Of a stretch of 64,000 bases of DNA, positions 21,076 through 27,119 are shown piece by piece. The notes beneath the pieces were generated by a model. That model ran no database searches. It was given only the letters and a program-made list of their open reading frames with translations, and was not told where the DNA came from. Every line of letters starts with the position of its first letter. The first letter of the stretch is position 1. A program made the position numbers and the translations under genes. Origin of the DNA: an uncultured Heliomicrobium sp. (GTDB taxonomy: Bacteria > Acidobacteriota > Blastocatellia > RBC074); contig CAZMXG010000011.1 of the NCBI GenBank assembly GCA_964570175.1, forward strand, positions 4,417-68,416. Direction: 5' to 3'.

Positions 21076-21942
21076 TCACTTCTTCGCCTTCTTTTTCCCT
21101 GGCAATGCTTTCTCTTCCGTAATTGTTTCCGATAAAGAAGGGATCACGATTCGTTCGCGGCTTGACTCCTCATGATCCACATCGGATTCAGGCGGCATAA
21201 TGATCAAGGATTCAGGCTTTCTTTCGAAACGAGCTTCGGATTGGTTTGCGATAGCTGGGAGCTGGCGCCTGCAATTATCAGGACTGGGAAACTTAACCTC
21301 TCCATTAGGGTCAACCTGGACTGTTTTCAGCACAATCCACGGCTCTTTTGGGCAAGGCAGGCAAGCACCGGCCTCCGGACCAGTCTGTGTATGGGAAGAA
21401 GGGCAGGCTTTCAAAACTTTGATCTCATACCCGTCGCGTAGACGCGAATATTCGCAAGCAGAGTCGTCACAACCACATCCTGATGGTTGCACGCGCACGG
21501 GACGAGTCATTACTTCTTTATAGCGAATCGCCAGAAACAGCGGTTTATCATCCCGCGTTTCGTGAACCTCGCTGCACCAGGGATCAGACTCTTCAACGCA
21601 GGGTTCGCCGGCTACACCGATCATGCTTTGCCCTCGCAAATCGAACGTGCGCTCGCAATCAATCACAATTTCATCGCCATACGGACCTAAAATATAGCCA
21701 GGTGTGATGACGACGTTCCATGGCGGCACTGTTTTGCCATCCTTTGTCACAGGCTTAACCTCTGCGCCGCAAACGATTCCCCAGCCGTGCAGCATGCGGT
21801 TATGCAAGCGCAGCTTGCTGCGAAAATAATCCTGTTCCAGTGTCATATCATCCGCAGTGATGAGCTGGCGGGCGTAATACCTTGGGCGTTCGCTGTTGCT
21901 GTGATCACAACGTATATCTTGGCAGAGCGTAGCTGTATTCAT
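21076..21942 (-). CDS. CIS-cluster paralogue A, putative tail-fibre/receptor-binding protein (function inferred)
   Basis: Shares the N-terminal motif RxYFxGQxLxxxDxxxEQxYxxxKxxLHNRxLHGxGIVCG with three other ORFs in the cluster. Cys-rich divergent C-terminus. Terminal gene of the cluster. Confidence 0.6.
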   Translation of the reverse strand: MNTATLCQDIRCDHSNSERPRYYARQLITADDMTLEQDYFRSKLRLHNRMLHGWGIVCGAEVKPVTKDGKTVPPWNVVITPGYILGPYGDEIVIDCERTFDLRGQSMIGVAGEPCVEESDPWCSEVHETRDDKPLFLAIRYKEVMTRPVRVQPSGCGCDDSACEYSRLRDGYEIKVLKACPSSHTQTGPEAGACLPCPKEPWIVLKTVQVDPNGEVKFPSPDNCRRQLPAIANQSEARFERKPESLIIMPPESDVDHEESSRERIVIPSLSETITEEKALPGKKKAKK

Positions 21943-21956
21943 GATGTTTCCCTCTT

Positions 21957-22751
21957 TCAGTATTCGGTTTCTTCTTCCTCAACCAGAGAAACCAGCAGTT
22001 CGAAAAGCAGCCGGTTGGTGTACACAATCGGGCGAACAGCGATGTCCACACGTTTGCAATCGTTTTCCAGCAATTCCACGTTGGCCAGTGGAATGCAACA
22101 ATCCGTTGGCAGTGAACGGCAACCGCGCGTCACAACATCGGCGATGGCGCTGTAGCTGATGCGGCGACCTGCAATGACGTCCGGAAAATTACGCAACCGT
22201 TTGGGCGCTCGCCCTTCGCGGATTTCGATCTTGTATCGTTCCCGGATCGAACCGGAAGCGCATTTCTCAATCGCTTCGCAATCGCCGGTTTGAATCGGCG
22301 CGGGGTCGCTTTCGCATTCGTGGTAACACAACACGACATGTTTGAATTTGTCGTCGCAATCCTCTTTCCCCTTTTGGTCTTTACGGTAGAATTTCTGGCC
22401 GATAGCGGATTCTGATGCTTCATCTGCGTCTTTGAACTCGCCAAGCGGCTTCTCCGCGGAAGGTTTGGGAACGATGATTTCTCGCCCACAGCGATCAATC
22501 GCCAGGCCGGGTGTGACGATCACGCTTGATTCATCGTCGGTCAGCACCACATCCAGCCCGCAAACGACGCCTGGCCCGGTTACCAAACGATTCAGCAACC
22601 ACCGTTTGGAGTTGAAATAGTTCTGTTCCTGTTCGAACTGGAACACATCCAGCAATTGGCCGTAAAAATATCGGTTGCGAACTGGCGTCTGCAGATCCGC
22701 TGGAGCGGGTTTGTGCTCGTAATGGTTTTTGGTCTGATTTTGCTGTGCCAT
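21957..22751 (-). CDS. CIS-cluster paralogue B, putative tail-fibre/receptor-binding protein (function inferred)
   Basis: N-terminal RYFYGQLLDVFQFEQEQNYFNSKRWLLNRLVTGPGVVCG. SD GGAAGGAAAA. Lies immediately downstream of the gpI-like gene. Confidence 0.6.
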   Translation of the reverse strand: MAQQNQTKNHYEHKPAPADLQTPVRNRYFYGQLLDVFQFEQEQNYFNSKRWLLNRLVTGPGVVCGLDVVLTDDESSVIVTPGLAIDRCGREIIVPKPSAEKPLGEFKDADEASESAIGQKFYRKDQKGKEDCDDKFKHVVLCYHECESDPAPIQTGDCEAIEKCASGSIRERYKIEIREGRAPKRLRNFPDVIAGRRISYSAIADVVTRGCRSLPTDCCIPLANVELLENDCKRVDIAVRPIVYTNRLLFELLVSLVEEEETEY

Positions 22752-22790
22752 AGTTTTCCTTCCTCTCTCGAAATCCTCTTCCGATTCGAT

Positions 22791-25046: not shown

Positions 25047-25051
25047 CGGTT

Positions 25052-26176
25052 TTACCCTTCGACTCCCAACCAGACGATTTGCCATTTTTCGGAGATGAAT
25101 TGAACAAGCAGATTCCCCACCTGATCATCAAATGCTTTGACATCCGCCATCTTCTTAAGATGTGAATTGATCGCCGCAGAAATGACTTCGCCAAATTTCG
25201 GCTGCGCCACATTGGCCTTGATACCGGACGCCAGTTTCAATTCGAAATTTTGCTGGACGATCAGCGGCTGGATTACCAGCAAAACATTCAGCTTGAACGA
25301 ATTCGCTCTGGATTCCGAAATTTGTAATAGGCCGTCAAGAATGAATCGTTCATTTCTGATTCTTGGGCCTTCGATTCGCGCCGAATAACAAGGCGGTGTG
25401 GTGAATCCACATTCGGACGTGTCTATGTCCACCTCAACGCCTATCGGCAGTATGTAAGGATTCAGAATGGTGTTGCCGCTAATCGCCTTCAAGATGTCTT
25501 TCCCTTGCTCTGATTCGGCAAATGAGATCGGATCGAAAGGCGCAAACTTCCAAGGTTTCCACGCAGGTTTGTCCGTTCTGCCACAACAGACATACGGCTG
25601 ACGGGAAGGGCGCGCATTGAGCCGTTCAGCAACGGAAAGGTCCTTGTTCAACTGGCAGTTCAGCACCTCGGCGCGACCCAGTATGATCTTTCTATTGCGT
25701 AGAATGTCGTCTCGGGATTGAGCATTGTCAGGTTGCCCATCATCGTTCAGCCTGATCCAACAGAAAATCGGTTCCTCTCTCAACCGAACCACGTCACTGG
25801 ATCCGCAAATCCCCTGACGCGTTTCAACCTTTTCTAAACTGGCATCATCCGGATAAGAAACCGTCAGGAAATACGGCACAGGTCTGCCTTCGTCTCCAGC
25901 CACTGGCGGAATGGGTTCAATGTGGGTTTGTGTCAGAACGATTTCGCGGCCATCGGCATCAATGGCATATCCCGGTCGAATAATAACTTCGCGGTCGCCT
26001 TTTCTGCCCACTACGGCATAGCCATTGCCGATTCCAGGCTGATGCAAACTTCGGTTGTGCAACCAGCGCATTTCGCGATTGAAAGCTTCCAGTTCCTGCA
26101 AGTCTGAAGCGAGCAAGCGCTGCCCGTTGAAAAACTGCTGCCGCTCAATGCGGCCATTGTCGTTAAGAGAGCTCAT
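25052..26176 (-). CDS. CIS-cluster paralogue C, putative tail-fibre/receptor-binding protein (function inferred)
   Basis: N-terminal motif ERQQFFNGQRLLASDLQELEAFNREMRWLHNRSLHQPGIGNG. Lies between the baseplate-J and gpI-like genes. Confidence 0.6.
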   Translation of the reverse strand: MSSLNDNGRIERQQFFNGQRLLASDLQELEAFNREMRWLHNRSLHQPGIGNGYAVVGRKGDREVIIRPGYAIDADGREIVLTQTHIEPIPPVAGDEGRPVPYFLTVSYPDDASLEKVETRQGICGSSDVVRLREEPIFCWIRLNDDGQPDNAQSRDDILRNRKIILGRAEVLNCQLNKDLSVAERLNARPSRQPYVCCGRTDKPAWKPWKFAPFDPISFAESEQGKDILKAISGNTILNPYILPIGVEVDIDTSECGFTTPPCYSARIEGPRIRNERFILDGLLQISESRANSFKLNVLLVIQPLIVQQNFELKLASGIKANVAQPKFGEVISAAINSHLKKMADVKAFDDQVGNLLVQFISEKWQIVWLGVEG

Positions 26177-27119
26177 GACTTACTCCTTGGACTTCAGAAT
26201 GCCCTTCCGCAATGTCCTGCACGCCCATCCAGCAAACATATAACTTTTGTTTTCTGGCGTAACTCAAAAAGTCTTGTTGAAAGTTCGAGTTCAAAATACG
26301 AGCACGTTTTCCGATCACCGCATTGACCGCTGGCAACCATAATCGAAAAGTGAACCGCTTGATCTTGGTATTGGTGATGTGATCCAGCGCCAGCGGAAAA
26401 AATTCGATATTGGCGCGGCTCCACAACTGTCCTTGCAACCACGCGAAATAGCATGGCGTTTCAGTAAATCCTGCGGCGGAGGTGTCAATCGTTACCTGAA
26501 TGCCAACGTTTGCGGCTCTTCGCTGCAAGAAATTGTCATTGCTGATCAGTGCTGTCTCTGACCACAACTCCCAAGCGGTGTCGCCTGGAACGGTCTGGCC
26601 GCTGCCGATGCGCGGACGCGCTAATGGCCTGGAAACCGGAGGCCTGAATACTTCTCCCGGCTTTACGGCCGCGTTGAAAAGCGGCACACCATCCCGAAAG
26701 GAAAAGCTATCCGCATCCGCCCAGAAAAATTCAGGTTCTTCAGCATTTGATGAAGCCGAGGGCCCACACGGTGCGCAAACGCCTAACAGGTCGCGATGGC
26801 TGGCGAATTCCGCCGTTTCCTTGTAACGAATCATTAACACGGTTTTGCCAGCAGAATCCGGAGGAATCGTTTTGGGCTGTTGCAAAATCAACTCTCTGCC
26901 GAAACAGTCGTAAGCGATGCCGTCTTCCACCTCAATGCCGTTGCCGCTCACACTGACTTTCAATCCCCGTCTGACGCCGTAAGCGTTATGCAAAGCTCGG
27001 TTGTGCCACCATCGCATTTGCGCGTCGGTTGCAAATTGGTCCTGCAAATCACGGCTGAGCAGTTTCTGCCCTTGCCAGTAACGAAATCGTTCGGTGTTTT
27101 CAGGAATGATCGCAGCCAT
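26163..27119 (-). CDS. CIS-cluster paralogue D, putative tail-fibre/receptor-binding protein (function inferred)
   Basis: N-terminal motif ERFRYWQGQKLLSRDLQDQFATDAQMRWWHNRALHNAYGV. Starts 1 nt after the baseplate-J stop. Confidence 0.6.
   Translation of the reverse strand: MAAIIPENTERFRYWQGQKLLSRDLQDQFATDAQMRWWHNRALHNAYGVRRGLKVSVSGNGIEVEDGIAYDCFGRELILQQPKTIPPDSAGKTVLMIRYKETAEFASHRDLLGVCAPCGPSASSNAEEPEFFWADADSFSFRDGVPLFNAAVKPGEVFRPPVSRPLARPRIGSGQTVPGDTAWELWSETALISNDNFLQRRAANVGIQVTIDTSAAGFTETPCYFAWLQGQLWSRANIEFFPLALDHITNTKIKRFTFRLWLPAVNAVIGKRARILNSNFQQDFLSYARKQKLYVCWMGVQDIAEGHSEVQGVSHELS

Follow-up and report, generated by a model that had tools for sequence, protein, structure and literature searches.

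Four conserved paralogues with a predicted shoulder domain close an extracellular contractile injection system cluster in an uncultured acidobacterium

Four paralogous genes beside the baseplate genes

An uncultured Heliomicrobium sp. (GTDB lineage Bacteria; Acidobacteriota; Blastocatellia; RBC074) carries a complete extracellular contractile injection system (eCIS), and four related genes close its cluster. The DNA analysed, called the window hereafter, is a 64,000-nt stretch of contig CAZMXG010000011.1 (assembly GCA_964570175.1, positions 4,417 to 68,416), and all coordinates refer to it. The four genes are named para1 (21076-21942), para2 (21957-22751), para3 (25052-26176) and para4 (26163-27119). 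Their open reading frames (ORFs) lie exactly where an earlier note, made from the sequence alone, had placed them, all on the minus strand, and encode proteins of 288, 264, 374 and 318 amino acids (aa), respectively.

The eCIS cluster occupies the minus strand from ~48394 down to 21076. It opens with an Afp15-like AAA ATPase with a winged-helix domain, followed by two DUF4157/eCIS_core proteins, a Pvc16_N cap and the sheath, and continues with a CIS_tube protein bearing LysM, a VgrG-like spike, gp25, two Baseplate_J proteins, para4, para3, a Tail_P2_I protein (Cis12), para2 and para1. The transcription order of the final block is thus para4, para3, Cis12, para2, para1, with two genes after the two Baseplate_J genes and two after the Tail_P2_I gene, as the earlier note had it. 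Downstream of para1 lies an unrelated oxidoreductase gene on the opposite strand.

The four proteins share an N-terminal block of ~80-90 residues that begins at residue 10-25 (alignments A1 and A2). The motif proposed for this block is present in all four from that position, but it is a loose consensus of about ten invariant columns. The residues common to para1-para4 are R, Q, N-R, three G, V and E; the motif's EQ is confined to para1 and para2, and in place of LHNR para2 has LLNR and para4 has WHNR. Judged at the sequence level, the four-way similarity is far beyond chance. That it is real follows from pairwise BLASTP (E 1e-12 for para1/para2, 1e-22 for para3/para4 and 1e-11 for para2/para3), from one independent NCBIfam model matching all four proteins and from a profile search with the N-terminal domain (N-domain).

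Downstream of this block the sequences had been described as completely different, which is wrong: the proteins form two tandem pairs, para4/para3 and para1/para2, rather than carrying four unrelated C-termini. In BLASTP, para3 and para4 are homologous over ~300 residues, essentially their whole length, with 30% identity and a common C-terminal domain, and the para1/para2 alignment spans ~165 residues. A 32-nt direct repeat, 88% identical (26042-26073 and 26988-27019), corresponds to the conserved MRWxHNR helix of para3 and para4 and is the sole DNA-level trace of duplication. The Cys-richness noted earlier holds for para1 (13 Cys) and para2 (11 Cys), most of these residues being kept in orthologues.

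Predicted fold, conservation and neighbouring genes

The motif had not been recognised as a named family, a view now outdated: NCBIfam NF053767 (CIS13_fam) covers the N-terminal core, which also fits published shoulder-like anchors of the eBAP type (see below). CIS13_fam matches all four proteins, at the N-terminus only, over model positions ~5-85/108, with the ~300 remaining model positions unmatched. E values are 5e-17 for para1, 5e-22 for para2 and 1.1e-3 for para4, and the scores from para1 to para4 are 62, 79, 33 and 18 bits against a cut-off of 370 bits. Orthologues of all four classes from five other loci also score <70 bits. CIS13 equivalog identity is excluded for all four orthologous groups, given scores far below 370 bits and a match confined to the N-terminus.

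Against the PDB, a profile of the four N-domains matched residues 17-85 of All3314 (Cis19, 7b5h_AA; E 9.5e-4) and, second, 9wt0_a (E 3.7e-3), a 1443-aa PKD-domain protein that probably belongs with the Alg19/Cis19 (eBAP4) proteins. Single-sequence phmmer searches of the PDB with para1 and para3 returned nothing relevant, and Cis19 came up with the four-sequence profile alone. In Pfam (E<=0.1) and PHROGs the four proteins matched no family, and DUF6519/eBAP5, TssK and H_lectin as sequence families, and the phage fibre families were dropped as candidates.

Structure predictions carry the assignment further. On these models, the shared domain is the N-terminal core of the ‘shoulder’ fold of TssK, lactococcal phage receptor-binding proteins (RBPs) and Cis19, all three of which are matched by the AlphaFold models in Foldseek searches. 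The para3 model (AF2, pLDDT 77) matches the TssK N-domain with Foldseek probability 0.97-0.99, and Cis19 as well. The para2 model (AF2, from an 84-sequence alignment, pLDDT 69) has Cis19 and TssK as its only coherent fold matches, over nearly the whole 264 residues (210-250 columns). Taken together, the alignments of the para3 and para2 models to Cis19 and the TssK N-domain span 205-250 columns, and para2 consists of hardly more than the shoulder. The models resemble trimeric receptor-binding proteins and not enzymes, the outcome that the earlier note had named as fatal to its view. Its assignment to fibres of the P2 gpH type does not survive, since the proteins have no fibre match in Pfam or PHROGs and no long shaft or beta-helix, and are predicted to adopt compact shoulder-plus-head folds.

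Within this common plan, each protein has its own features. The 318-aa para4 (26163..27119), a shoulder-domain protein encoded directly after the second Baseplate_J gene and homologous to para3 over its full length, has its N-domain at residues ~9-88 (26856..27095; alignment A2), with a median 53% identity to orthologues; the orthologue in related locus L001 is 39% identical. In the 374-aa para3 (25052..26176) the shoulder domain is joined to a beta-sandwich head at the C-terminus. The first 14 nt of the gene are shared with the end of para4 and the last 34 nt with the beginning of Cis12. The protein has 1140 homologues that are 45-65% identical over their full length and all annotated as hypothetical. 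The para3 N-domain (residues ~10-90, 25907..26149; alignment A2) contains the conserved helix ...REMRWLHNRSLHQPG, is ~80% identical over 81 orthologues and reaches a median of 72% over the surveyed loci; the AF2 model has a helix at residues 29-44. The para3 head (residues ~236-374, 25055..25471) is predicted by Foldseek to resemble H-type lectins (4q56_A, probability 0.98, TM-score normalized to the target 0.57; Pfam H_lectin match absent) and carries the motif IDTSxCGFTTPPCY, common to para4. By homology to para3, the para4 head would be H-type-lectin-like too.

In the 264-aa para2 (21957..22751), little appears to be present beyond the shoulder domain and a helix at the C-terminus, which would make it an attachment-only module; the protein has a conserved four-Cys cluster, and its 968 homologues are 49-78% identical over their full length. 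Its N-domain (residues ~24-100, 22452..22682; alignment A2) has a median 68% identity to orthologues. C142, C146, C158 and C164 are kept in 61-67 of the 67 orthologues, and C64, C211 and C219 complete the conserved constellation. The last gene of the cluster, para1 (288 aa, 21076..21942), encodes the shoulder, a Cys-rich middle with homology to para2 and a tail of low complexity. About three quarters of its orthologues have an additional C-terminal domain that is missing from this short variant; identity to the 381-aa L001 orthologue is 49%, over the first 250 aa only. Its N-domain (residues ~18-105, 21628..21891; alignment A2) has a median 62% identity to orthologues, and C58, C123, C156, C158 and C163 are kept in 65-66 of 66. 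Overall, the Cys constellations of para1 and para2 are 90-100% kept over 66-67 orthologues, and the Cys region of para2 is of low confidence in the AlphaFold model. The four-Cys clusters of both proteins may form a metal site or a disulphide knot or centre.

A search of 1.84 billion proteins with the N-domain profile yields 11,466 cluster representatives at E<=1e-3 (6,175 at E<=1e-10). The domain is nearly always N-terminal in these representatives, on proteins of 100-1400 aa; thus, the idea of one anchor with many distal parts is correct at the family level. For para2 and para3, about 1000 full-length homologues each (45-78% identity) are found, all labelled ‘hypothetical’ and mostly from Blastocatellia and Pyrinomonadaceae. 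Gene order was surveyed in 82 related loci, 78 found via the para3 family and four via para2 homologues; the 78 loci sample para3-bearing systems, a subset of all shoulder-domain systems. The surveyed loci represent Acidobacteriota, Chloroflexota, Actinomycetes, Cyanobacteria, Planctomycetota, Gemmatimonadota and further groups. All four classes occur in 65 of the 82 loci, the remaining 17 being truncated at a contig end or interrupted by frameshifts. The order Cis11a-Cis11b-para4-para3-Cis12-para2-para1 is found in 62 of the 65 complete loci, and the three exceptions look like artefacts of over-extended ORF starts. Every locus with enough flank adjoins Baseplate_J, Tail_P2_I and gp25 genes, so that homologues away from baseplate genes, which would have spoken against the earlier note, did not turn up.

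Conservation is not restricted to the anchor. Identity to the window proteins is 53-72% for the N-domains, against 61% for gp25, and 36-45% for the distal parts, over 74-91% of the distal length, against 44-50% for Cis11 and Cis12. The distal parts evolve only slightly faster than Cis11 and Cis12 and are, on these figures, not the hypervariable domains proposed earlier. There is likewise no sign of switchable, cassette-like targeting: four classes occur in every complete locus, in fixed order.

Lengths were counted from the shoulder start, since ORFs are over-extended upstream in GC-rich genomes. They are tightly held in the para2 class (229-287 aa) and the para3 class (~294-388 aa), bimodal in the para1 class (227-313 aa in 16 loci, including the short form of the window, and 336-445 aa in 51 loci) and most variable in the para4 class (264-474 aa, plus 542-924 aa in nine loci). 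Examples of long para4 are L029:6974-9961, L065:7206-10010, L055:1538-4252, L059:7288-9963 and L062:6849-10004. A Pfam scan of long para4 (four scanned, with 500-600 extra residues) and long para1 orthologues left the extra distal domains unmatched; an NCBIfam scan of the L001 para1 orthologue gave only a weak match to a choice-of-anchor-Z repeat. The extension of long para4 could be an uncharacterised distal fibre module. One long-read Actinomycetes metagenome-assembled genome (L019, 6879-9800) contains a 973-aa Cis11b-like ORF that runs into a shoulder at residues 724-794. If true, this ORF would place para4 at the Cis11b C-terminus; it is probably an assembly artefact in a frameshift-rich locus.

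The baseplate neighbours of the four genes are all encoded on the minus strand. The 160-aa gp25-like sheath initiator (32848..33330; Pfam GPW_gp25, E 1.4e-25) marks the start of the baseplate wedge module. It is followed by two Baseplate_J-like wedge proteins, the large Cis11a (1146 aa, 29411..32851; Pfam Baseplate_J, E 1e-13; TIGR02243, 207 bits) and Cis11b (761 aa, 27121..29406; Pfam E 6e-9; TIGR02243, 289 bits, above cut-off). Cis11b, which has sub-threshold similarity to TssF, lies directly upstream of para4, an arrangement conserved in related loci. The 764-aa Cis12-like wedge protein (22791..25085) combines a gpI/TssG-like Tail_P2_I domain (Pfam E 7e-14) with an N-terminal NHL beta-propeller (Pfam E 7e-10). 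In NCBIfam it matches TIGR02242 and CIS12_fam (143 bits, below the cut-off of 860 bits), and in the PDB it matches NHL domains (E 2e-25), 9gtp_E (E 1e-8) and the R-pyocin Tri2 protein PA0619 (E 7e-3), the latter through its Tail_P2_I domain. The propeller occupies residues ~60-330; proteins of the Cis12 class measure ~700-830 aa in most related loci, and NHL matches are present in Cis12 of both loci inspected (L001 and L003). The propeller itself could be a binding or scaffolding element.

Further upstream, the two eCIS_core/DUF4157 proteins (1098 aa at 41153-44449 and 526 aa at 44553-46133, minus strand) lie between the ATPase and cap genes. The remainder of both proteins has no Pfam match, and they are probably cargo or toxin of this eCIS. 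The Pvc16_N cap protein (40127-41059, minus strand) has a C-terminal CarboxypepD_reg/SdrD_B-like beta-sandwich, an extra decoration of the cap end. Two eCIS-internal ORFs without Pfam match (36173-37243, minus strand, 356 aa; 34263-35474, minus strand, 403 aa) could, by position, encode a tube-length/tape-measure protein and an Afp6/Afp7-like component. A sigma-54-dependent activator (Sigma54_activat, AAA lid and HTH_8; 48922-50364, minus strand), encoded on the same strand immediately upstream of the eCIS, is a possible regulator of the cluster; a scan of 20500-27500, the stretch with the fibre genes, gave no sigma-70-like promoter. Beyond it, and unrelated to the para genes, are a gene for a MbnB/TglH/ChrH-type enzyme that modifies ribosomally synthesized and post-translationally modified peptides (55773-56792, minus strand) and tandem tricorn-like proteases with PD40 propeller, PDZ_Tricorn and Peptidase_S41 domains (57506-60853 and 60928-63984, minus strand).

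Roles of the four proteins and rival explanations

It is probable that para1-para4 are four ancient, non-interchangeable, constitutive shoulder-anchored baseplate paralogues of a Tail_P2_I-type eCIS. The predicted shoulder fold and the baseplate-gene context support the proposal, made in the earlier note, of a shared N-terminal docking module on proteins in the fibre position. By analogy with solved relatives, each paralogue would trimerise through its shoulder, and three central helices with the most conserved motif, RWLHNRxLHxxG, would line the trimer axis and clamp a loop of a wedge protein. Loop donors may be the gpI/TssG-like Cis12 or the C-terminal parts of both Baseplate_J proteins. Cis12 is the likely docking partner offering loops to the shoulder trimers, because of the precedents of Alg12-Alg19 and TssG-TssK and the work of Nachmias et al. 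(see below). This would give up to four different short projections per wedge, on six wedges. The lectin-like heads of para3 and para4 probably bind target surface glycans, para2 is probably an attachment-only shoulder or plug with a structural or stabilising role, and para1 would act here as a short form without the distal domain of most of its orthologues.

Several points weigh against this explanation. The sequence links to solved structures are weak, with Cis19 at E ~1e-3 and no Pfam match to TssK or H_lectin, and the Foldseek E values for para2 are poor (0.09-0.9), from a model that is only moderately confident (pLDDT 69). Anabaena Cis13 (All3316), a baseplate-bound trimer of solved structure, was unmatched in every sequence or fold search; the NCBIfam name CIS13 therefore does not tie the para proteins to that solved chain. 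Trimerisation, docking partner and number of sites per wedge are drawn from relatives. Finally, the strong conservation and small size of all four proteins also fit a purely structural role.

This last point leads to the alternative that survives best, rather unlikely as it is: the four proteins as fixed parts of the baseplate periphery (stabilisers or checkpoints, a crown or cage, membrane anchors) with little or no target choice. Precedents exist in TssK of type VI secretion systems (T6SS) and in Cis13 and Cis19 of the thylakoid-anchored CIS (tCIS): Cis13 anchors the tCIS to the membrane, TssK links to the membrane complex and, in addition, Alg19 stabilises the pre-firing state. The invariable presence of four classes in fixed order across many phyla agrees with such a role, as do the tight lengths of para2 and para3, the absence of a distal domain from para2 and distal parts that evolve almost as slowly as Cis11 and Cis12. 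It is opposed by the lectin-like and RBP-like heads predicted for para3 and para4, and by the long or extra distal domains of para4 and para1 in some genomes, as expected for binding modules. Moreover, the Pvc16_N cap, DUF4157 cargo proteins and Afp15-like ATPase of the cluster are typical of a released eCIS, and no transmembrane helix was noticed by eye in the four translations, no dedicated search having been made.

A second alternative concerns stoichiometry. Para4 with para3, and para2 with para1, might co-assemble into two heterotrimers per wedge, much as each TssG carries two TssK trimers; we consider this unlikely. The members of each pair are the closest paralogues and are encoded by adjacent or overlapping genes. 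Single chains joining para4-like and para3-like parts exist (P0121, P0135, P0198 and possibly P0162), as do chains with three tandem shoulders (P0122, P0124 and P0211), in which non-identical shoulders would stand within one assembly. However, the fusions may be frameshift or gene-calling artefacts, the genes being overlapping; all solved relatives (TssK, Alg19, Cis19, Cis13 and phage RBPs) are homotrimers, and Nachmias et al. (PMC12923769) model up to four separate fibres. The tandem-shoulder chains could be single-chain pseudo-trimers or fused neighbours and, if real, are a hint of heteromeric shoulder assemblies. No description of heteromeric TssK-like shoulders or single-chain pseudo-trimers was found in the literature consulted.

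An extension of this idea, similarly improbable in our estimate, regards the locus as a distinct ancient eCIS baseplate design, in which two Baseplate_J proteins are combined with an obligate hetero-oligomeric 2+2 shoulder periphery around the NHL-Tail_P2_I protein. Such a periphery may consist of two heterotrimers or of four site-specific homotrimers, with the roles divided between lectin heads, a plug that only attaches and a distal module that may be absent.

The strong form of the first interpretation, four alternative and fast-diversifying tail fibres of a multi-specific or target-switching injector, is very unlikely: it can call on one shared anchor bearing four different distal parts, on multi-fibre eCIS loci so interpreted in the literature and on the varying lengths of the para4 and para1 classes, but it faces four conserved orthologous groups per complete locus with distal parts 36-45% identical across phyla, unlike host-range cassettes, and a para2 without any binding domain. 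The DNA also speaks against it. Inverted repeats in the block are limited to weak 21-25-nt matches, no recombinase, invertase or diversity-generating retroelement gene was noted in the cluster, and promoter-like and terminator-like sites inside the block show no excess over chance and thus give no sign of separate regulation. Switching by inversion or by a shufflon was dropped, the inverted repeats being weak and the sole notable direct repeat being the MRWxHNR helix.

If para1-para4 are constitutive shoulder-anchored paralogues as preferred here, they probably serve target binding and baseplate stabilisation in an eCIS lineage that is common among soil Acidobacteriota and present also in Chloroflexota, Actinomycetes, Cyanobacteria and Planctomycetota. 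Identification of a shoulder with predicted lectin-like heads would give a function to homologues all labelled ‘hypothetical’ in databases and would open a route to the targets of environmental injectors, for example via glycan binding by the para3 and para4 heads. Compact anchor-plus-head modules may also be offered for the retargeting of engineered eCISs, and the fixed four-paralogue set bears on the relations between T6SS-like (TssK, TssG and TssF) and eCIS baseplates. This kind of protein was already catalogued in 2025-26, and para1-para4 are new, uncharacterised members of it. The gain is incremental because the general concept is already published; the invariant arrangement of four paralogues (2+2) with two Cis11 proteins across phyla adds a modest new detail and makes heteromeric versus site-specific assembly a worthwhile question.

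Comparison with known systems

Five N-terminal eCIS baseplate anchors have been defined by Nachmias et al. (Nat Commun 2026, PMC12923769; preprint May 2025). Among them, eBAP3 comprises ~200-aa shoulder-like, TssK-like anchors in Tail_P2_I loci, with loop-mediated attachment and up to four fibres, and distal parts that range from attachment-only modules to SLL2-like lectin heads; several fibre genes occur in 23.4% of loci, with a maximum of five fibres (PMC12923769). Compared by published description, para1-para4 appear to fit eBAP3-like anchors best. They share the ~200-aa shoulder-like N-domain, TssK/Cis19-like in the para3 and para2 models (para2 E 0.09-0.9), and the position downstream of Baseplate_J and Tail_P2_I genes in a Tail_P2_I-type locus with Pvc16_N, CIS_tube and eCIS_core markers. 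SLL2-like (H-type) lectin or attachment-only distal parts would be a further likeness, and multi-fibre loci are common in that paper. Differences exist as well. In the paper, eBAP3 comes mainly from Bacillota and Actinobacteriota, and Acidobacteriota are unmentioned in the main text and the supplement parts consulted. In the loci checked (Nonomuraea and its table neighbours) the fibre genes are consecutive, whereas here they are split 2+2 around Cis12 with paired Baseplate_J genes; the Nonomuraea eBAP3 loci, with three consecutive fibre genes, are, as far as these entries go, not obviously of the same architecture as the Nonomuraea locus of our survey (L028). Lastly, the paper stresses versatility and rapid evolution, whereas the para set is ancient and invariant.

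Other anchor types fit less well. eBAP5 (DUF6519 with a ~200-aa insertion) is excluded by the Pfam scan at E<=0.1, empty for all four proteins. eBAP4 loci lack Tail_P2_I genes (PMC12923769); this type is a poor fit to a locus that has Tail_P2_I and to proteins of 264-374 aa without an immunoglobulin (Ig) or PKD match in Pfam. P2 gpH and the Afp13/Pvc13 fibres occupy the same position after gpJ and gpI and are presumably also baseplate-attached binders, but they have no homology to the para proteins, in which no long beta-helical or coiled shaft is seen. In addition, the para genes are not followed by a fibre chaperone gene, and their anchor is a predicted shoulder rather than a short helical N-terminus of the eBAP1/2 type.

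The RBPs of lactococcal phages 1358 (4l92) and p2 (2wzp) have the same short shoulder-neck-head build, with a saccharide-binding head. Sequence identity is 7%, and these phages have non-contractile tails in which the RBPs dock on Dit/Tal-type hubs, not on gpI/gpJ wedges. TssK shares the predicted shoulder fold (Foldseek probability 0.97-0.99) and the general scheme of several shoulder trimers on gpI/TssG-like loops, beside two Baseplate_J/TssF and gp25/TssE subunits. It differs in that Pfam TssK is unmatched here and that one TssK gene is used twice per wedge instead of four diverged paralogues. Further, TssK links to a membrane complex, whereas the para cluster is an eCIS, in which Pfam scans met with no T6SS family apart from the sub-threshold TssF similarity of Cis11b.

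Cis19 (All3314) forms the trimeric crown of the thylakoid-anchored CIS (PMC8894136). Alg19, its homologue in AlgoCIS, is a homotrimeric tail fibre with a shoulder that folds like lactococcal phage RBPs and TssK, and the three central helices of its trimer hold Alg12 by its C-terminal loop, as TssG is clamped by TssK; when Alg19 is deleted, cell binding is lost, the pre-firing state becomes less stable and particles fire more easily (10.1101/2025.10.08.681156). The likeness to the para proteins would lie in trimers bound to the baseplate, with Alg19 also holding a loop of the Cis12 homologue and being responsible for attachment to cells. The difference lies in size and build, Alg19 and Cis19 reaching ~1450 aa with long necks and Ig/PKD chains as opposed to 264-374 aa, and in a sequence similarity that is marginal.

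In the Anabaena tCIS, Cis13 docks on the C-terminus of Cis11. Judged from the locus tags All3316, All3315 and All3314, Anabaena cis13, cis12 and cis19 are consecutive, and the para gene order parallels this cis13-cis12-cis19 arrangement with each fibre position doubled.

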